Source: Spirochaetia bacterium
GTDB taxonomy: Bacteria > Spirochaetota > Spirochaetia > DSM-2461
NCBI GenBank assembly: GCA_963668315.1
Contig: OY764216.1
Span: 4,576,001 to 4,640,000, forward strand
Reading direction: 5' to 3'
DNA: 64,000 nucleotides
How positions within the stretch are numbered: position 1 is the first letter of the stretch; each line of letters starts with the position of its first letter. The notes under the pieces are model-generated. The model was not told the origin of the DNA. It ran no database searches and saw nothing but the letters and a program-made list of their open reading frames with translations. Both the position numbers and the translations under genes were made by a program. This document shows, in pieces, positions 52,982 through 64,000 of this stretch.

Positions 52982-53020
52982 ATATAGTACTATTTCCGGG
53001 ATTCATCCTTTCCAATCAAA

Positions 53021-53116
53021 TTACACCAAGACTCCAGAATCATGATATAATATGCTATCTATAGTAGTAGAATAAACTTGATAGAAATAGAGGACGGCCT
53101 CATAACTCGAAGGCCG
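53021..53116 (+). mobile_element. Third, degenerate attR-like island end
   Basis: ttacaccaag at 53021; acttgatagaaat..aggacggcctcataactcgaaggccg. Confidence 0.7.
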
Positions 53117-53480
53117 ATGACTATAGATTTGGTTTTATGAAAACAATCTATATTAAGAGGCACCTATTCCACTACCCTATTTTTTCAAAGAAAACGGCGG
53201 GTGAAATATTATATTTAGCAGCAAGTTTCTGAATATGTTGTTTATTAAGTTCTCTCTTCCCCGAAATAATCTCACTGATAACCGATTGGGGAGCAATATC
53301 ACTCAAATCTGATTGTTTATGCTGATGCTCTTCCATTAATCCTTGTAACATATCAATAGGAGATACTTTTGGCGTAGGAATATTTCCTTCATATTCTTTA
53401 AGCTGACTTTTTATGTAATGATATAACCCTTTCAAATAGGTTTTCTTTTCTTCAATAATTAACTCTTTCAGCTGGAGAAG
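53076..53480. repeat. 405-bp direct repeat, copy 2
   Basis: Matches 45866-46270. Confidence 0.92.
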
Positions 53481-53591
53481 AATATCTTCGGCCCTAATAG
53501 CATCGGAATCAGTTTTTATTTGGATAGAGGTCAATTCTTCCATAACTGAAATATTTGCTTTATCTAAAAAATTATCCAGTGAAGTAATCAT
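53172..53591 (-). CDS. higA: HigA-like HTH antitoxin/regulator; no toxin partner seen
   Basis: LMEEH..KQSDL....QSVISEI..GKR.LN..HI.KL. Confidence 0.85.
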   Translation of the reverse strand: MITSLDNFLDKANISVMEELTSIQIKTDSDAIRAEDILLQLKELIIEEKKTYLKGLYHYIKSQLKEYEGNIPTPKVSPIDMLQGLMEEHQHKQSDLSDIAPQSVISEIISGKRELNKQHIQKLAAKYNISPAVFFEKIG

Positions 53592-54225
53592 AATTAACTC
53601 CCAACATGATATTATCAAAAAACACCAAATAGTCTCTTAAACAATATCCTATATAGATTATAGTTTAGCTCTATACGACAAGGATTTACAAGAAACGTTT
53701 TATTATATTCCGTTTTAAATCAAACTTATCTTTCTATGTATCATTCCTTTTCATTTGATAAGTTCAAATAAAATCACCAATGCTGAAACGATAATCATAC
53801 TTCTCTTATATCCTATCAAAAGTTACGTTCTATCCTTCGTAAATATTCTTCTGATCTTCTAAATCCTTTAAACAATGCCGATCAATATTCTTTCTTTTAA
53901 AACAGCTTGTCAATCATCCGTTCATTAATGTCTTTGTTTTAGAAGCTTGAAATACTTTTTTTATTTCTTTACAACATAGAGAATTACAAAACGAATCGCG
54001 CGCTATTTTATTATATTACAAAGATTTACGCAATATAGCGTTTACCCATATACAGCCTTTGTTTTACAACTATATACACATATAACAAAGATTTAACTGT
54101 TAGCGCTTTACATGCTTTATCTTGCATAGCTAACAGTTAAGGATAAAGTTAAGAAAATCAATATATAAATTACACAATAGATTTAAATAACTGAATGAGA
54201 AAAGATCAGAATTAAAAGTAATTTT

Positions 54226-54255
54226 CCCAAAAAGGTCACCGGTGACCTTTTTGGG
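54226..54255. repeat. Perfect 30-bp palindrome
   Basis: cccaaaaaggtcacc|ggtgacctttttggg. Confidence 0.95.
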
Positions 54256-54501
54256 GATTTAACAGGAATTTGACATTAAACGAGAGCCTTCCGATCTACA
54301 TACTCCTGATATTCATATCTCAAAAAGAAACATATTATTGTCTATATTTTTTCTAAAGAAAAAGCCTATAATCTCCATTAAGAACTCTTGCCAGGGATAT
54401 TGTCTTTGAAGATTCTTGCTTCATTCCATCTAATGATCGTATTTTTCCTCCCTGATGGTAGGCTGACGATCCATTTCTATCTACCCTGATGTGATAAGTA
54501 C

Positions 54502-54921
54502 TCACAGATCTGATACATCTCCAAATAAATCCAGCATAAATCTTCCATTATTTTTAGAAATTGATTTAACAAAAGATTTCCTAAAATTTTCATAACGTGA
54601 AGTAGCACTTTTTCTAGCACCTTCCCTCTTTTCATTATTATCAGGCAATGCAGGATTATAGATAAAAAAGCCGTAAAGAAAAGAATCAAAATACTTCATG
54701 AACAAATCTAGTTCTTTATACAATCTATTTATATTCTCAGAGCTTTCTGAAATAGATTTTGATAATACATCAATCATGCTTGATTCCTTTTCCAATTTCT
54801 CATATGCAGCGTCTCTAATAAAATCAGAGAGAGTATAGTTCTTACTACAGAAATTATCCATTATTTTCTTTTTAATATTTATTGGTATACGAATATTAAT
54901 ACTAGTTTTAACACTTGACAT
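54502..54921 (-). CDS. Ribbon-helix-helix-like DNA-binding protein with coiled-coil tail
   Basis: SINIRIP strand, TLSDFIRDA helix; aaggag RBS; inverted repeat at 54966-55020 upstream. Confidence 0.6.
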   Translation of the reverse strand: MSSVKTSINIRIPINIKKKIMDNFCSKNYTLSDFIRDAAYEKLEKESSMIDVLSKSISESSENINRLYKELDLFMKYFDSFLYGFFIYNPALPDNNEKREGARKSATSRYENFRKSFVKSISKNNGRFMLDLFGDVSDL

Positions 54922-55114
54922 AGTTTTATACTCCTTATTCTATTCTATATAAACAATTAAAAGTCGTAAAAACCTCATAAAGTATCATTATATAATATTC
55001 TATCCCGTATGAGGTTTTACAATATAGAGAGTTTATCTTACGAATCTATACTTACTCTAAAGGGAATTACGATTATACTCCCTTTATCTAGCAAAGATCC
55101 TAAAAAAGCTATAA

Positions 55115-56026
55115 CTATTCAGATTTCCATGGTACTCTTTCATTCAATTCTTTCAAATTGGATTCATTAAATGGAAACTCCCCCCTCGACCTCTTTGCCA
55201 GATTCTCTTTATCACTTGAATGAAACGAAGATGAAAACTTCTGGCTACGATTAGGAAGATTAGGATCGGTATGAGGCCTTTCCTTCCATTTCTCAGAACG
55301 TAACCAACTAATGGCATTTGGAATAAATTTCCGATTATCCTTTTGCCATTCTTCAGTAGTCATCCAATCAGAAACAAGAGCAATATGATCTTCAAGAACT
55401 GGCAGATTATGAATATTCAAAAACAAAGCTAAGGTCTCATTCTTGTCACACTTTCTTGGATAGTGTTCCCACCATTTCTCAAAATCCAGTTTTTTCTGTT
55501 TCAGGTCTTCATTCTCTTCTAGTTTAGGTTCTTCTTGTCTTTTCTCTTCTAGTCTAGCTGTGACAGTCTGTGACTCGTCATTGACTGTCACAGACATGTC
55601 ATAGACAGCCTCATACGCATCAAACCAATTAGGGGTAGCCAGCCTACCAATCTTTTTCTGCTCTGCCACTTGTGCCTTATAGACTTTAATCAGCTTTTGG
55701 AGTTTCTTTGAACGCGTCGCTGATGTAAGAAGGAATTTATAGATCTTATGACAGGAAATCTCTCCTGATTGTTCAAGGGTTAATAGATCTTGATTACACA
55801 TGAAATGAATCATCTGTTCAACTCGCGAAGTATTACCATTGTAAAATTGGGCAATATCTTCACATGTTTCCTCCAACGTCGGTAGAGGGCTATAATCTTC
55901 TATAGCCTCTGTAATCGACTCAATAATCAAACAGTATAATCCATAGCCTTCAATACCATATCTTTCGAATACTCTTCTGATTTTTGGATCATGCCTCATT
56001 GTACCCAGGTGCTGAAAATATCTCAT
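55115..56026 (-). CDS. Phage-type replication initiator (replisome organizer-like)
   Basis: YFQH....DPKI.....YG.EGYGLY N-terminus; repeat-rich linker; FEKWWEHYPRK and FIP...WL...W C-terminus. Confidence 0.8.
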   Translation of the reverse strand: MRYFQHLGTMRHDPKIRRVFERYGIEGYGLYCLIIESITEAIEDYSPLPTLEETCEDIAQFYNGNTSRVEQMIHFMCNQDLLTLEQSGEISCHKIYKFLLTSATRSKKLQKLIKVYKAQVAEQKKIGRLATPNWFDAYEAVYDMSVTVNDESQTVTARLEEKRQEEPKLEENEDLKQKKLDFEKWWEHYPRKCDKNETLALFLNIHNLPVLEDHIALVSDWMTTEEWQKDNRKFIPNAISWLRSEKWKERPHTDPNLPNRSQKFSSSFHSSDKENLAKRSRGEFPFNESNLKELNERVPWKSE

Positions 56027-56217
56027 CTGGCCCCCCTAATCCTACTATCCTGAAAATCCGCTGTGATCTTTTGGGATTTAGTTCCAGACCACTCAATCCT
56101 AACCAGTCTAGAATCATGCAGGTGGACTTTAAGTGAAATACAGCCATACGCTGGAATAGTCTGAAATACCTCCAAAAAATCTGGAGCAATTTCTTCTAGA
56201 AGTTCTTTAGCTTTCAT
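56023..56217 (-). CDS. Small hypothetical protein
   Basis: Overlaps both neighbours; gggagg RBS. Confidence 0.6.
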   Translation of the reverse strand: MKAKELLEEIAPDFLEVFQTIPAYGCISLKVHLHDSRLVRIEWSGTKSQKITADFQDSRIRGAR

Positions 56218-56404
56218 CTATAACCTCCCAACCATCATATGACCCATTAAGAAGATTATCTATAAATGACTCGGGAACACGTATCTGCTTCCCAATTCTT
56301 ACGTGTGGAATCGCATCATTTGCGATATGACGTATGAATGTTGAATAACTGATACCTAATCTATCAGTAACTTCCGTAGGTGTTAAAAATTTATCATTAC
56401 CCAT
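56207..56404 (-). CDS. Excisionase-like HTH protein
   Basis: FLTP.EV..RLGIS.ST......IP.VRIG..IRVP. Confidence 0.85.
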   Translation of the reverse strand: MGNDKFLTPTEVTDRLGISYSTFIRHIANDAIPHVRIGKQIRVPESFIDNLLNGSYDGWEVIDES

Positions 56405-56524
56405 CTTTCTACTCCAATAATTATTATTGATTGCAATCATTGGGTAAATGATAGAATTCGTATCAATTTACGAATACGTGTAAAAGTAGTGGAAAATGGG
56501 TAAAAAACAGGGAGGAAGAAGCTA

Positions 56525-57053
56525 CGAGCCACCCCGTGTTTTCCTGAGACACAATTATTTGAGAGAATAGTTTCATGAAAAAGCGGATCATCTATATTCT
56601 TCCATATAAAAGTTGGCTGATGGGTTTTACAATCTATGAATACAGATTCAACCTTGGATGCCTTGGAACAAGCTATTTTTGCTCGATCCCAAGAGAAAAA
56701 TCTTATCCATCAAAGTTACAGAGGTATTCTGTATTTATTAATTAGGTACTCAGAACGCCAATCTGAATCAGGATTTTCTCCATCAGTTAGTAGCGTTAGT
56801 CATATAATAATGCCACGGACGAGACAATCAATGGTCGTTTTTAAGCGGAGATGATTTGGAAAAGAAGTTCTTGGAAAACAATGGAAGACTCAGAATTAGC
56901 CATTCTGGAATAGGAGGACTGGTTCAAGAATCACAGACTTTTGGTGCCAATCGTAGATAATCTTCCCTAAGAATACGAAATGCTGTAAAATAAAAGAGTT
57001 AAAGGTTCGTCTGAATTAGTAGGACTCAAATAAAAAAATCTCTGGGCGGTTCA
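56525..57053 (+). mobile_element. Internally deleted IS3-family (IS51-like) remnant with 3-bp target duplication
   Basis: Ends cgagccacccc... and ...gggcggttca, flanked by cta/cta; LDALEQAI..R...LIH integrase-core remnant. Confidence 0.78.
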
Positions 57054-58037
57054 CTATTTCAAGGGGAAACATTTGTGCCAATTATCTTCAAGAGACCGTT
57101 CAGAAAGAACCTCCCCTGTCTTTTTAATTAAATTGGGAAAATGTACTTTGGGGTTTAAATCGGGAGAATCTTTATAATGCATCTGAACGAATTTAATTAT
57201 TGAACATGTTAATTGATATCGACCATCGCCGATCCTCTTAATATATTGCTCTTTTTCTAGATTTTTCAAAACTGATAATACTTGTTCGTATGGATCATGA
57301 ATTAAATCATCCTTTAATAAAATCTCATTCAGAAGGATTTCATAGTCTACCAAATGTAACAGATGCAAATTGAATAGAAACTCCTGATTCTCATTATACT
57401 TGAAAGCCGTTCTCTCTTCTTTAAGTACAATAAGAATTCTAGGGATAATATCCGCAAAACTAAGAAGTTCACAAGCATTTACAAAATCAAGAACAGAAGT
57501 TTCCTCTGACATTCGAATAACCTGTTCTATAACACGAGGATTAATATCCTCTGATTCATTTCGATATAGAATAGAAGCAAGTAAGATTAAAAATCTCTTT
57601 GCATCATTAACATTTCTTATAATGATTTTCTTTTTTTGTTCATGGCTCAATACATCATATCTATTTTTTAAATAAAGCTCATATTCTATCTGTTCATCCG
57701 TAAAGAACTTTACATTTTCCTCAATATACTCAAACTGTTGATCCAACTCGCGCTTAAGAAGCTCTTGGGATGGATCAAGTTGATCTAGTTCCTCTGATAT
57801 GTTCTTCTGCTCTATTTGAGTATGTTGTAAAAGCTGATTTTCAAAAAATGTTTCTTGATAAAAAGAGAATAATGCATCATCCTCAAGATTTTGAGGAATG
57901 GGTAAAAATAAATCCGCATATTTCGCCCGGAAGAAAAGATCATTGGTTTGACCGCTTCTTATAGCATATTCAACATTTTTATAAATCTCAGTTCTTAGTG
58001 ATCCATCATCCGGATAATATTTATGTATTCTAATCAT
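57054..58037 (-). CDS. Hypothetical protein
   Basis: 327-aa ORF in AT-rich DNA, overlapping the XRE gene end. Confidence 0.75.
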   Translation of the reverse strand: MIRIHKYYPDDGSLRTEIYKNVEYAIRSGQTNDLFFRAKYADLFLPIPQNLEDDALFSFYQETFFENQLLQHTQIEQKNISEELDQLDPSQELLKRELDQQFEYIEENVKFFTDEQIEYELYLKNRYDVLSHEQKKKIIIRNVNDAKRFLILLASILYRNESEDINPRVIEQVIRMSEETSVLDFVNACELLSFADIIPRILIVLKEERTAFKYNENQEFLFNLHLLHLVDYEILLNEILLKDDLIHDPYEQVLSVLKNLEKEQYIKRIGDGRYQLTCSIIKFVQMHYKDSPDLNPKVHFPNLIKKTGEVLSERSLEDNWHKCFPLK

Positions 58038-58251
58038 TCAATGCTTCTTCTATTGATCTAACTATCTCCCACGCAGGACATCCAATACCACGTGCTATTC
58101 TTATAATTGTTTTCAATGAAGGCATCTTCTTACCGGTTTCTATTTCGGATAAAAAAGCTTTACTCATATCTATACGATTTATGAGTTCATCTTGGGATAA
58201 TCCGGATTTTTTTCTATAGTTACTTATTACTGAACCTATAACTTCCTTCAT
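58030..58251 (-). CDS. XRE-family HTH regulator
   Basis: RKKSGLSQ.EL......FLSEIE.GK..PSL. Confidence 0.9.
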   Translation of the reverse strand: MKEVIGSVISNYRKKSGLSQDELINRIDMSKAFLSEIETGKKMPSLKTIIRIARGIGCPAWEIVRSIEEALND

Positions 58252-58677
58252 TGGAGATAATTATATTAGTTTACGCCTTACAATATGATACGCTATTGAA
58301 TATCATCAATAGTCATATGGATGTATAGGTTACATTAAAGACCTTCTTCCCTGTAACTATTCTCATAGTAGAAAAAAAAAGCCTGCCTTCTCCACCAAGC
58401 GTTACAACGAGTTTTATCAGTATTTCTTATCTACTAAAGCAGCCTTGTCATAGGCATTGTCAAACAAATCGTAATTATTAAAGCCAAATGAGTTATACCA
58501 TACGTATTATTATGAACATAGATTTCTAATATAATAATCTATTACGCTAAAGCGTTATACCAAGTATACCTAATCGTCAATACTATATAATAATGAATTA
58601 AGATAGTTGGAATTATCAATTAATGATGATATTTTAAAAACATTGAATCTTTATTTTTTTTACCTGGAGATATATTT

Positions 58678-58989
58678 ATGGAACAAAATTCGGTTTGTCG
58701 TACAAAACAGTTCTGGGGGATTTGTTTTAATGATAGAAACACAAATTCACCGTATGAGGGAGATTATCTACTGGGAGAAGCTATTTTAAGATTTCACAAT
58801 GGATATCTACATAGCCGTTTAGAAAACGGAAATATAATCCCGGCAGTTGAGTTTCCAGATTTCCATATGGAATACTACTATGAAGGAAAACTACACCGTG
58901 AAGAAAAAGCCGCGATCAGCTCAGATTATGGTAGTATTAAGGAATACTGGGAAAATGGAGAACTTATCAAGGTAGAAACATTTGAATAA
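58678..58989 (+). CDS. Hypothetical protein with MORN-variant-like repeats
   Basis: NGYLH..PAVE, EGKLHRE..AAI, EYWENG; ggag RBS. Confidence 0.7.
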   Translation: MEQNSVCRTKQFWGICFNDRNTNSPYEGDYLLGEAILRFHNGYLHSRLENGNIIPAVEFPDFHMEYYYEGKLHREEKAAISSDYGSIKEYWENGELIKVETFE

Positions 58990-59004
58990 GTATTATTTTT
59001 CTGT

Positions 59005-59130
59005 CTATCTTCAATAGTTGCTTTCTAACAGTCTATCCCGCTCCTCCTTCAAAAGTACATTGTCGGGCAAAAAAACCGCAGCACGGCCGGTCTCTTTCAA
59101 CATAGTGCGAATGTACTGTAGAAAGTTAAG
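59005..59130 (-). pseudogene. hsdM: Fragment of a type I restriction-modification methyltransferase
   Basis: LNFLQYIRTMLKETGRAAVFLPDNVL, frameshift, then EGGAG*TVRKQLLK. Confidence 0.75.
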
Positions 59131-59427
59131 ACCATCCGAGGTCCAATAAAGCCTTGATTTGCTGCTGTTTTTCTATTTTCAGTACATTCCCCACACTCTA
59201 TCCTCCAAATAGAGGATAAAGGTTAAAAATATTGTCTGAAAATGGCCGCTTTTATGTGCCCGTTAACACAATAGCATCATTTTCGTTTTTGATCTCAAGT
59301 ATTATTTTTTCTTCCACCTCCATTTTCTTATACTCAAGAGAATCATAAATATAAGGCTCATCATCACCCTGATCATGCATTTTATCAAATGCTTCCTTCC
59401 AGCCTATCCGAGTCCCTGCGGATAATC

Positions 59428-59679
59428 TCATTCTATTAACTTAAGCTGGTTATCCCTATTTTCCAGTTTTAGTACAGGTCGATTTGTAGCAGATCCCATA
59501 TCTATTATGCATGCCTTCAATTCCTCAAGACTTGAACCAAAAGGGATAAAAGGTTCTGCATCCCAATAGAGGATATCATCTTCTTAATTGTAATAGACTT
59601 CCCGTATTTGAAAATCTGCTTCTTTAGTCTTCTTTATATAAATAACTCAAAAATCAAAACTATCAATTTCATTATTCAT
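59428..59679 (-). pseudogene. Small phage-type hypothetical gene with two in-frame stops
   Basis: DF*VI...IREVYYN*EDDI.YW..EP..P.G.SLEELK...PVL; stops at 59647 and 59584. Confidence 0.55.
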
Positions 59680-59701
59680 TTCGTCACCAATTCCTTAAGA
59701 T

Positions 59702-60496
59702 CTACTCATCGAGACGACGATCAGAATAACTTGGAATACCAAGATCATTTTTTTCAAATGCATCAAGATTGAGAATACCCCTTGAATCAAATTCACATGG
59801 AATATAATTATCCTTAACAAGAATCAATCCCTTCTCAACCATGTATTGGATTATGTCATTGGAATAATAGTTAAGTTCAAGAATCATTACTGGAAGTTTT
59901 TTAAAGTCATTTAAAATAGTGGAAAAAATAATATCTATAATTTCGTATAAAAATCGTGGATCAGAATCATAATTAAACGCACATAATTCTAAACAATGAC
60001 TTCTGTAGAATGTCCTACCAATAATGAATCGTTCAGTAGACAATCTAGTCCAAATTCCTATTGAACCTTTGACTACTATATGCTTACCAGCATCCCCAAT
60101 ATTTGGATTTCTCAGAAAAAATAGGCCATCTTGGCACCTAGAATGGATAGAAATATGATTTGATAAAATTCGAGAATAGCATTCTTTCTCTGATAATGAA
60201 AATTCAGATAAATTCATCTCAAAAGAATCGAAAAAACGATATAATTCTTCTTCAGGAATACCATATCTAGAAATGGCTTTATATAAAAGGGGAAGATCGA
60301 CATTTACATTCCTATGAATTATCTCTTCATCTGAGCCAAAGTGATACCTAATATCCGATATGTTATCTAAACCACCGAAAGAGATCAACTCATCATATAA
60401 ATCATTTAATTTAATTTTCGGATTTAGTTTTTTACTATAATAGTAAACAGGTCTGACGATCTTTTTGATAAAAGATCTATACTCTTTTGCATTCAT
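59702..60496 (-). CDS. Hypothetical protein
   Basis: Long ORF in AT-rich DNA; start moved to MNAK (RBS gaggag). Confidence 0.72.
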   Translation of the reverse strand: MNAKEYRSFIKKIVRPVYYYSKKLNPKIKLNDLYDELISFGGLDNISDIRYHFGSDEEIIHRNVNVDLPLLYKAISRYGIPEEELYRFFDSFEMNLSEFSLSEKECYSRILSNHISIHSRCQDGLFFLRNPNIGDAGKHIVVKGSIGIWTRLSTERFIIGRTFYRSHCLELCAFNYDSDPRFLYEIIDIIFSTILNDFKKLPVMILELNYYSNDIIQYMVEKGLILVKDNYIPCEFDSRGILNLDAFEKNDLGIPSYSDRRLDE

Positions 60497-61099
60497 AATT
60501 ATACTCCTCTCATTGCAATCTAACCCCTCTTTACTGAATCGCAATAATTGTAAAATTATGATAAAAAAGAATAAAAACTTATGTTGGCATCTAGGAGGAG
60601 AACCTGTTTAAGCTTTACTTCACTAAGTATAAAATGTTTAATAACATTAATCAATTATTTGAGGGTAAGAAAGAAAATTGTTCAAACTAGACTTCCCCGA
60701 TTTCTATACAACGTAAGATTTCTATCCTGCAGAACCCAAATAAAAAAAGTCCCCCTGGTAGCATCCATATCGTCAAAACATCCACCGCTTCTGCGGGATA
60801 GAACTCGTTGTACTCAACCGACTGTATGAAAAAGCTTTCTCCATGGGTCTTGTATTGAATTTCCAGCTTACATGAAAAGTATAATACTGTTCCCTTAATT
60901 AAGAAATAGTGATTTTCCCACTTACCGTAAGAAATAATCCCTATTCCCCTTTGGGAAGAATTATAAAAAGGGCTTTCCCGGGGAAAGTGAGGCATAAAAG
61001 AACAAAGCTCCCCCACGAATCCTATGAACAGGACACGGGTGAGAATAATCGTTCGTATTTTTCCATCAACAATTATCACAGGCCGAGGGCCTGGTCACT

Positions 61100-62259
61100 T
61101 CAGGATACCCTGCAAGGATTTGGCTCAGGACCATGAATACTCCGCCTATTTCCATACAATCCCATGAAGATCATCTCTTTTCCGCATTTGCAACAGACTT
61201 TTTTCTCAAAGTCCCAAGTCTCGACATCCTTATGCGACTCATACTCATTCGCTGGATTTTCTCCTGGTTCATGGGAAAAATCGGGGAGTTCCGTTATGAA
61301 TTGCCGCACTTGCCTTAGGGATTCCCGCCTGTTATGATTACTCATATAACCGAAATATCGTATCTTTCTCATCCCCTTGGGCAAAAGATGAAGAAGAAAA
61401 CGATCAATGAATTCCTCCAAAGGGAGAACCATCCTTTTTCTCTTGTGGCCGGAGGCTCTGTCAATCCATGTGAAATTGACTCTGTCTCCATCTGTGGCAA
61501 CAATCCGCTGCTCGCTGATTCCCACACGGTGTGTATATCGGCCCAGGTACTTAACAACCTGAGCAGGATTTCCAAAAGGCTTTTTGGCATAAACCACAAA
61601 GTTTTTCCGCGCGGCACTCTGTAGATTTTTCTCATAGAGAACCCTGTCGCCAAAGAGAGCCCCCTTATCACAGTATTTTCTGAGTGAACTCAGCAGCTTC
61701 CCCCGAAAAACGACAGACAATTTCTTCACCGGCACCAGATATTTGGGATTCCCCTCAATCCAGTGAGATTTATCAGGAGAGAGGCCTCCCCGGGTAGAAT
61801 ACAGTGCACATGAGGATGATAAAGCAGTTTCTGCGTCCATGTATGAAGAACTGATAATCCCCCTACACCGGCCCCGAGATTCTCCGGATTCTGACATACC
61901 TCAAGAAGTGTCTTATGGGCACTATGAAAAAGAGCTTTGTAGAATAGTTGATGATTCGCACCAGCCAAGTGAAGCAGTTCATGGGGAACCGTAAAGACCA
62001 CATGAAAATAGGGAACCGGCAATAATTCTTCCAGCCGCTTGTCCACCCACCGGACACGGGACGCTCCCTGGCACAAGGGGCAGTGCCTGTCCCGGCAGGA
62101 ATTGTAATGAGTTTCTTTATGCCCGCATTCGCAAACCAAGGTATTACCACCCATCCGATGGGTATGGCAATCCGAAATATGTCCCAGAACCACCCGTTCT
62201 CTCCTGTTCAAACCGGGAAGAGTTTTCCCTATCTCTGCTATTTCTCCCAATTTACTCAT
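61100..62259 (-). pseudogene. IS91-family Y2/HUH rolling-circle transposase, 1-bp frameshift
   Basis: Zn-binding C.C..YNSC..RHCP.C, YFHVVFTVP, LHTW, HPHVH, YLGRY, IRYFG; frame breaks in the C4 run at 61788-61791. Confidence 0.93.
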
Positions 62260-63115
62260 GAACCGCTTCCCCTCCCTTCAAAGAATCAAGAGGATTGCGG
62301 ACGGTTCTTATATGATGGGCGGCAATATGCAAATATTTTTCCGTCGTCTGGATATCGGAATGGCCTAGAAGAGCCTGTATCGTTCGCAAATCAGTTCCGG
62401 CCTCAAGAAGGTGCGTGGCAAAGGAGTGACGAAAAGTATGGGGAGTCACATGTCTCTCCAATCCTGCTCTCACGGTAAGATTTTGGATGAATCTCTGAAT
62501 GGTAGAGGTATGCATCTTCACATGCCCCCCTCTGCCGGGAAACAGCCATTCATCGGGTTTGACACGGCAGGACCGATAATAAGCCCGTAAAATCTCCAGC
62601 AAATCGGCGCTTAACTGGACTTTTCTATCCTTACCGCCTTTCCCCTGGCGGACATGAAGCAGCATATTCTTACTGTCGATATCGGTGATTTTTAGATTAA
62701 CAAGTTCGCCTATTCTCAAACCGGTACTGTAAAGAGTGGCGACAATAGCATAGTGGCGGGGATTTTTCCGGACTTCAGAAAGCAACAGGGATACTTCCTT
62801 TTTGTTCATTACCTCGGGTAGTTTTTTTCTCATCTTCTGAAAAGGAATATGATTCACCGGCCAATCGACGCCTCTTACTTTCTGAAAATAAAACCGGAGC
62901 GCACAGACCATTTGGTTAAAATGGGACCAGGAAACCTTTTCCTGGTGCACCAGATAATATTGCCATTCATGAATATCTTCGAGTGTTACCAAATCAATGG
63001 GCTTCTCTAGATGGGTCAGATACTTTTTCAGTACGGCGACATAGGTTGATATCGTTTTTTCTGCATAATTGCGGATCACCATGGCTTTGCGCATGGCTTC
63101 TAATTCTTGTGTCAT
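62252..63115 (-). CDS. Tyrosine recombinase (site-specific integrase)
   Basis: N-terminal SAM-like domain, TGLR..E, GKGGKDR, HTFRHSFATHLLE, LGH, TEKY. Confidence 0.95.
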   Translation of the reverse strand: MTQELEAMRKAMVIRNYAEKTISTYVAVLKKYLTHLEKPIDLVTLEDIHEWQYYLVHQEKVSWSHFNQMVCALRFYFQKVRGVDWPVNHIPFQKMRKKLPEVMNKKEVSLLLSEVRKNPRHYAIVATLYSTGLRIGELVNLKITDIDSKNMLLHVRQGKGGKDRKVQLSADLLEILRAYYRSCRVKPDEWLFPGRGGHVKMHTSTIQRFIQNLTVRAGLERHVTPHTFRHSFATHLLEAGTDLRTIQALLGHSDIQTTEKYLHIAAHHIRTVRNPLDSLKGGEAVHE

Positions 63116-63228
63116 ATAACACCTCCGCCTCTATTGTGAAAAGAGTGACGGATTTATATAACCGGGGAATCTTGATAGGTGGAGAAAAGTGTGATGGTGT
63201 TGAATCCACCGCTGGGTACAGCGGTTTA

Positions 63229-63336
63229 GTTCAACGCCCGCATAACCTGTTTTCCGTACATGGCAGAAATCCTGCCTGCGAAGCAGAAAAGCAGGATTTG
63301 TGCCATAGGAAAATCAGGTTCATGCGATTGTTATAC
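63229..63336 (-). other. Integron attC recombination site
   Basis: Minus strand: R'' GTATAAC, 5 nt, L'' CATGAACC, long imperfect stem, L' GGTTATG, 5 nt, R' GTTGAAC; extrahelical base in L''. Confidence 0.85.
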
Positions 63337-63523
63337 GGTCCGTTCTTTTTCCCACATCTTTCTCGCTCCCGCCGGAACACAGGAAATGGGTGAAGGTGAT
63401 TCTTATTGATCTATTTTTCATTCTGCTCCATTACCATACTTGAAAGCAAGTCCGAAAACTGATCTGGATGCTTTTCCTTGATTCATATTAAATTGGAATT
63501 GGCAGTAGTCTTCATCTCTGCTG

Positions 63524-64000
63524 CTACTGGTCAAAAAGTAAGCAAGTTGGCGTATAGTTACAGGCACCGCTCCACTCATAACACTGGACAGGTGCTGTCG
63601 CATTTAGCCTATGTCCTAAGAAGAGGGCCAGATGGGAGGGCCCCGCGAAAAATAAGTGTATCTTATCTATAGAAGTCTTGGAAAGCTCAGTGGTAATTGC
63701 CAGCTTCAACTGATTCACCACAACATTTGTATGTTCTGGTGATAAAATAGGAGATGAGCTATTTAGGCTAAGAATTGAAGCTTCTCCAAGGTTTAGCGAA
63801 GGTAGAGCGGGCTTTACATTTTCCTTTATATCACGTGCGATCCCTATAACAATAACCAGATCGGAGCTTATACCATTGTCTTTTATGATAGTGAACTTGT
63901 ATGGTGGTGTTTTTTCGTTTGGAAATGAATCTGTAGACCAGATTTCATTTCGATATATGAGATCAATCGCAAATCCAGAAACTGCAGAGAATATAGACCC
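63524..64000 (-). CDS. SAVED-domain protein, C-terminal part (CBASS Cap4-like effector); 5' end outside the window
   Basis: Frame open from 64000; IHLFFAGPSHLALFLGHRLNATAPVQCYEW...Y.P. Confidence 0.88.
   Translation of the reverse strand, partial: GSIFSAVSGFAIDLIYRNEIWSTDSFPNEKTPPYKFTIIKDNGISSDLVIVIGIARDIKENVKPALPSLNLGEASILSLNSSSPILSPEHTNVVVNQLKLAITTELSKTSIDKIHLFFAGPSHLALFLGHRLNATAPVQCYEWSGACNYTPTCLLFDQ

Follow-up and report, generated by a model that had tools for sequence, protein, structure and literature searches.

A two-gene recombinase and IS91-family transposase element with the build of an integron cassette: a candidate selfish cassette

The window, meaning the whole 64,000-nucleotide stretch of spirochaete DNA that was analysed, carries a two-gene element that is flanked by two G|TT crossover points and was scored as one cassette-sized unit. 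On balance, its sequence features make it probable that this is a selfish cassette, in which a short tyrosine recombinase would move a circular form and an HUH enzyme would amplify it by rolling circle. Proposed more tentatively is an autonomous cassette, with the HUH protein initiating replication from an origin that only the circle possesses, and an insertion-less relative of IntI recombining the folded single strand into integron sites and other recombinase sites. A single type of folded site may be shared by elements of this kind and the arrays headed by short integrases, which together may reveal an origin of single-strand recombination, and of attC, that precedes the IntI insertion.

Extent and genes of the element

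The ends of the element were set by alignment with five close relatives (L016, L017, L018, L094 and L095), which have recombinases of 80–92% identity and the same end motif at 60712. The features are as follows.

60712..63234, minus strand: whole element, 2523 bp
63209..63234, minus strand: left (ter-like) end, with TT, the IS91-type GAAC and a GC hairpin at 63224-63209
62252..63115, minus strand: tyrosine recombinase, 287 aa, catalytic R-K-H-R-H-Y intact, without the IntI insertion
61726..62259, minus strand: IS91-family transposase, first frame, with the zinc-binding domain and the HUH motif at 61818-61804
61100..61897, minus strand: IS91-family transposase, second frame, with the Y2 motif at 61549-61535
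60807..60824, minus strand: subterminal box that matches the left end in inverted form (14.5 of 17) and closes with an R''-like AAC
60710..60813, minus strand: right-end (ori-like) hairpin, the element's own, inner stem 60806-60796 with 60727-60717
60697..60711, minus strand: right flank, beginning like another cassette of the host genome (G000)
63229..63336, minus strand: canonical attC of the host, at the end of the upstream CBASS cassette; its part 63235-63336 belongs to the host and the last R' bases are element-derived
63524..64000, minus strand: 3' part of Cap4 (SAVED) of the four-gene CBASS cassette, a neighbour outside the element

The initial annotation had given 60925..63336 for the element together with its attC; the ends shared by the five relatives put the element itself at 60712..63234. 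An end at 60925 was rejected because homology continues for a further 213 bases to 60712, and the best position for the left boundary is the TT that precedes GAAC, at 63234. The shared ends, the G|TT junctions and the variable flanks agree with its being one mobile unit with junctions at the integron crossover, as had been supposed. The host genome contains one copy.

The recombinase matches the profiles PF00589/PF13495. Against TIGR02249 (IntI) it scores 198.5, below the cut-off of 265, with the match split, and the match to 2a3v is likewise split. In alignment with two IntI proteins there is a gap in the recombinase where the IntI-specific insertion sits, and the catalytic residues R, K, HxxR, H and Y are all aligned. 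The score and the gap uphold the early description of a tyrosine recombinase that lacks the insertion. A single-sequence structure model had a pLDDT of 46 and was too poor for use.

The second gene was correctly recognised as an HUH/Y2 transposase, its two halves matching NF033538 at 184 and 173 bits against a cut-off of 125. Its reading frame breaks near 61787, directly past the HUH motif. Contigs of two other samples (X4 and X6) read identically there, with no indel at the frameshift site, so the break is not an assembly error. A programmed frameshift was also rejected; four relatives (L016, L017, L094 and L095) have the transposase in a single intact frame. The transposase of this copy is broken. 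In the close clade both genes are under purifying selection, with dN/dS of 0.02–0.09 for the recombinase over the five relatives and of 0.03–0.12 for the 5' part of the transposase. The copy being defective, the locus is valuable mainly as an example with clean boundaries.

The upstream attC and the host array

The sequence at 63229-63336 forms one long hairpin with fold z-scores of -9.1 on the plus and -7.3 on the minus strand, and none of 200 shuffles was equally stable. It has canonical attC geometry (score 10.5) and is a member of the host attC family, being 84% identical over 88 nt to the site at G000:3342423. A well-formed attC had been described here, with an R' GTT leading straight into GAAC and a GC hairpin, and both observations hold. 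The possibility that the attC is a component of the element was rejected: the upstream flanks differ among the relatives, each attC being different, and the same attC family precedes other DNA in run X9. The hairpin is therefore not invariant among copies and not owned by the element.

The element stands third in an array within a tRNA-Met island. The array begins with an OLD-family gene cassette, followed by a 5020-bp CBASS cassette with a start that matches its own R''. A candidate head site of the array lies 7.6 kb upstream, and the IntI of the genome is located 1.5 Mb from the element. The CBASS cassette (window 63235-64000 with L001 9235-14254, which is G000:4639235-4644254) is a complete four-gene type II operon, encoding cyclase, E1-E2, JAB and Cap4, within one integron cassette with matching R''/R'. 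The 2.6-kb cassette ahead of it contains the OLD-family nuclease and two ORFs. On the other side of the element, the region 53000-60700 of the window forms the low-GC core of the island. It contains helix-turn-helix genes and a replication-like gene of Lin1244 type, and its segment 59130-59260 is like an insertion sequence end with a truncated reading frame. An empty site of this island was not found in 37 genomes of the host's family.

Element ends and the asymmetric class of cassettes

The GAAC and hairpin of the left end have fold z-scores of -3.8/-4.4, and the motif is present upstream of most loci that pair a recombinase with a Y2 transposase. Both the tetranucleotide and the palindrome are conserved, in keeping with the terIS-like start that had been proposed. 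The same motif and hairpin also open gene-less or unrelated units (L175, L176, L177, L186 and L191), several of which are directly behind attC-like hairpins; the L176 unit is a two-gene toxin-antitoxin-like pair.

While the left end had been recognised from the outset, the element's own right-end hairpin (60710-60824) had been overlooked. This spans from the R''-like AAC to the terminal GTT and has a 3' arm that is 4 nt longer than the 5' arm. The +4 register gives 10/11 pairs, the runner-up 5–6/11, and the asymmetry with its 10/11 pairs is kept in 5/5 close relatives. Taken alone the hairpin is of modest stability (z -2.2/-2.6). It is not a canonical attC, as both the 5/5 spacer and the extrahelical base are absent. 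The asymmetry differs by clade (+2, +3 or +4), and for 8 rows from Bacteroidota a chance AAC further upstream scored higher than the expected one. The R''/R' of the element match at 6/7. A 15-nt string across the right junction is repeated at the cassette start at G000:5021749. The right-end motif had no occurrence in viral contigs. In run X8 a 417-nt contig has both element ends close together (joint 60747-63218, with 22 letters on the shorter side) and is possibly a gene-less mini-element.

A hairpin scan of the host genome, run without a shuffle control, returned 54 matches, many of them isolated and probably due to chance. The clustered sites form two classes, canonical sites of 90–100 nt and asymmetric sites of mostly about 135 nt. 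Seven asymmetric sites belong to an array that has a 266-aa recombinase without the insertion (G000:5010731-5011531) at its head, and four belong to a headless array, with canonical sites mixed into both. The first array is part of an integron-like platform with a divergent head site beside tRNA-Arg/Asp (G000:5010731-5027900; L005, L007). The second asymmetric array, at 3437-3444 kb of G000, is inside another integrase island.

From the 27 adjacent-site pairs in the host genome, 14 with perfect R''/R' were kept, 12 were set aside as imperfect and one is the element. Outer stems (of 17) score 15–16 in six asymmetric cassettes and 11.5–13.5 in eight canonical cassettes; the element has 14.5. Across phyla, 23 elements have outer stems of 11.5–15.5, against a mean of 7.8 and a maximum of 11.5 at control GTT sites (n=460). 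With a 3' arm extended by 4 nt, no canonical L box and a long outer stem, the element has the geometry of the asymmetric class and is thus built like a cassette of that class. The element recombinases do not join the short integrases of the platforms in a recombinase tree with an unresolved backbone, from which 7 rows were left out. Insertion-less recombinases without a transposase were also seen at L038, L047, L049, L053, L055, L056, L063, L064, L080, L083 and L144 (Bacteroidota where named); downstream of these, in the same orientation, are asymmetric hairpins, mostly of about 124 nt.

Crossover position and junction forms

At the left end GTT is followed by GAAC, or by CAAG in one clade. 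Neither tetranucleotide follows the right (ori) end at any of 37 right junctions (0/37), these ends having been found by patterns that finish in GTT; the variant GGAC occurs at 1 of 12 rhizobial right ends in groups A–C. This weakens the proposal, made in the initial annotation, of rolling-circle copy-out from the integrated state. GTT on both sides makes the cut site unreadable in the close clade. Two rhizobial plasmid groups have TT at 7/8 left and 4/9 right junctions, a pattern that puts the crossover at N|TT, where integrons recombine, and two bases away from the nick made by IS91. These are small counts from relatives at about 41% identity, and group D, where the right ends are not true ends, and group C, where the register is unsure, were left out. 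The family is not uniform, as clostridial relatives have TT at 0/4 left and 0/5 right junctions. Their ends are IS91-like, resembling those of IS1294, and these relatives may use other chemistry.

The ori-ter junction forms that had been predicted were found in relatives only. L133 is a closed metagenome contig with a 127-nt terminal repeat, a 2551-bp unit and a single GTT at the ori-ter junction, although it could be a collapsed tandem; L160, likewise from a metagenome, also carries an ori-ter junction, with terminal repeats that are 97% identical. Contigs of 7 runs contained neither an ori-ter junction of the present element nor an empty-site joint. In the rhizobial plasmid copies L270, L271 and L274 the flanks have repeated boxes like the binding sites of other tyrosine recombinases, which we take to resemble RIT-type ends. 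The left ends of L276, L278, L280 and L282 are cut by one identical foreign 40-nt sequence.

Flanking sequences in relatives

Full attC sites, in forward orientation at R' and different from one another, precede the window copy, L016 and L018. All of the full left flanks in the close clade are therefore attC (3/3). L094 has just 4 bases there, which are compatible, L017 starts without a flank, and the left end of L095 is damaged, with no attC. Two more arms of attC type, each 30 nt long and judged by eye against the G000 sites, come from loose ends in runs X4/X5 and X7, and run X8 has a further one of 9 nt. The downstream flanks of the window copy, L016, L094 and L095 start with TT and then diverge; L017 stops at TT and L018 is a 5' remnant.

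The attC had been seen as the insertion target. This view is weakened across the family, where 9 of 54 distinct GTT-core left junctions are behind a scoring hairpin (5 forward and 4 backward), compared with 4/540 controls. A first scorer had given 4/43 junctions and 13/258 controls, and strict family-wide targeting of attC was rejected on both counts. All of the scorers were home-made rather than IntegronFinder and miss divergent sites, that of L018 scoring 8.5 against a threshold of 9.5. The four backward copies (L234, L241, L250 and L075) belong to other clades and do require direct use of such sites. Many of the left junctions without a hairpin share an array-head-like motif about 8–13 bases upstream. 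Among 61 loci for which 300 nt or more of upstream sequence were available, 3 had a tyrosine recombinase match of any kind there. An adjacent IntI-like gene or classical attI was rejected for most non-attC junctions on this basis. On the right, 2/24 flanks passed a strict cassette-start test. Capture of adjacent cassettes by failed termination, also suggested initially, found no counterpart, with no co-moved upstream cassette in 7 multi-copy sets.

A relative of 1.5 kb in the genome G579 has no recombinase gene inside and is present in five full copies. Two of these are at array-head sites beside the gene for a 265-aa insertion-less recombinase or its remnant, and three are behind asymmetric hairpins of the array headed by that gene. 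Four transposase-only copies (L251, L231, L252 and L232) are in one short-integrase array at G579:C3:825829-860813; another, L255 at C1:3097059, is at a second head site, and one 5'-truncated copy is elsewhere. The positions of these copies indicate that forward docking can arise from later insertions at the head, and attC docking may therefore reflect only later cassette insertions. As the copies have spread without a recombinase gene, the recombinase need not be in cis.

Proposed mechanism and alternatives

It is proposed that a short tyrosine recombinase excises and inserts a circular form of the element. Circularisation would join the right-end hairpin to the left end, and the joined ends would create a folded recombination site. 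The circle would also be the first form in which the IS91 tetranucleotide is next to ori, which would make the circle the main substrate of the HUH protein and the form that it amplifies by rolling-circle copying. The folded strand would then be recombined into sites with a GTT core, including array heads, attC sites and the sites of other recombinases. Candidates for the insertion of this copy are its own recombinase, the short integrase of the host or IntI, and entry could have been at the attC or at the array head. Insertion by a tyrosine recombinase, as first envisaged, is still the most likely course when compared with insertion by the HUH enzyme, but the case for the element's own recombinase is weakened by the G579 copies and by the presence of both IntI and a short integrase in the host genome.

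Alternatively, the HUH enzyme might, in the manner of IS91, copy the chromosomal element into a single-stranded circle with ori joined to ter, and the element's own recombinase would then insert this circle, preferentially at attC. This is possible, though rather unlikely. The same junction is present in L133 and L160, GAAC or CAAG follows GTT at ter, selection acts on both genes, and the backward copies in attC (L234, L241, L250 and L075) are impossible by later insertion. The spread of such elements in rhizobia and clostridia, hosts that are poor in integrons (10.1101/2022.02.28.482270), is also as expected. However, the nick at ori would have to be made without a flanking tetranucleotide (0/37), 45 of the 54 junctions have no scoring hairpin in front of them, and the G579 copies do without a recombinase in cis. 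On insertion of the folded circle by the recombinase, this alternative and the favoured selfish cassette agree.

Movement of the element as an ordinary cassette by the host's IntI or short integrase, its own recombinase being idle or regulatory and the attC docking resulting from later head insertions, is improbable. The G579 copies without a recombinase, at head and internal positions, are what it would produce, and G000 has both IntI and a short-integrase array, with asymmetric cassettes behind canonical attC; the window array also has its candidate head site. Against this, the recombinase is under strong purifying selection with intact catalytic residues, the multi-copy spread is in hosts where integrons are rare, and the right end has neither the canonical spacer nor the extrahelical base. 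Least probable by far is an IS91-type transposon that the HUH enzyme alone excises and inserts at a shifted, GTT-type target, the recombinase resolving multimers or acting as a regulator. A bottom-strand cut next to AAC gives the same products where GTT flanks both sides, the clostridial relatives are IS1294-like at their ends with no TT core, and the G579 form carries a transposase alone. Yet the rhizobial junctions put the crossover at N|TT, the targets resemble tyrosine-recombinase sites, and the cassette-like outer stem and asymmetric hairpin are left without explanation.

If the selfish cassette reading is true, integron arrays harbour a cassette that multiplies itself, and recombinases without the insertion are able to handle hairpin sites. 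The IntI insertion has been described as the mark of single-strand recombination (10.1101/2022.02.28.482270). The literature surveyed offers no explanation of what the recombinase does next to IS91 transposases. With a two-gene unit of 2.5 kb whose ends are defined and whose folded site is predicted, this role and the need for the IntI insertion become testable in E. coli.

Comparison with known systems

The pairing of a recombinase with an IS91 transposase, and the kinship of that recombinase to IntI, have been published (10.1101/542381). ISShvi3 is an IS91 element with an Integron-like tyrosine recombinase, and one IS91-like element beside an attC is already in print (PMC9229058). Neither source, in its accessible text, gives ends, a crossover, the element's own recombination hairpin or a mechanism for such elements, and the accessible parts of PMC5737581 and PMC10973501 hold nothing further on the subject. 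The openly accessible full-text literature yielded no account of how such elements end, where they cross over or by what mechanism they move. Added here are the site geometry that links the recombinase and IS91 elements to short-integrase arrays, the evidence for N|TT and the recombinase-less copies at head sites. Further IS91 elements with an Integron-like tyrosine recombinase have ISfinder names, including ISSod25 and ISAzo26.

The IS91 family (IS91, IS801, IS1294 and IS1294b) shares with the element an HUH/Y2 transposase, a ter of GAAC/CAAG with a palindrome and, in relatives, ori-ter forms. IS91 depends on a target tetranucleotide adjoining ori and inserts circles of the bottom strand (PMC13181058), whereas the element family has no such tetranucleotide beside ori (0/37). 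The element also differs in having an upstream tyrosine recombinase in place of orf121, a GTT core at both junctions and a cassette-type inverted box that links its ends.

Like canonical gene cassettes, with their IntI, attI and attC, the element has the G|TT position, the array orientation and matching R''/R' (6/7). In contrast to them, its own site is without the 5/5 spacer and extrahelical base, and it carries a recombinase and an HUH enzyme. Group IIC-attC introns and IS1111-attC elements (PMC9229058) are likewise found at array attC sites. The introns insert backward at R'' and disrupt the site (PMC7923331), whereas the present element points forward at R' and the attC stays usable; the enzymes are unrelated.

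The CTX phage is inserted as a folded single strand at dif by tyrosine recombinases (PMC9345347). The division of labour proposed here would be the same, with an HUH enzyme making single strands and a tyrosine recombinase integrating them. The replication protein of the phage is an HUH protein. In contrast to the phage, the element has no virion, carries its own recombinase and uses integron-type sites.

The arrays of insertion-less integrases (in G000, G579 and Bacteroidota loci) share with the element the +4 hairpin, the long outer stem and a recombinase without the insertion. They differ in that the element's recombinase travels within the cassette, together with an HUH gene, and the tree gives no signal of common ancestry within the IntI-like group. 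The element departs from IS91 in its target rule and from the canonical cassette in its attC geometry, and it is therefore filed as a combination of known kinds.
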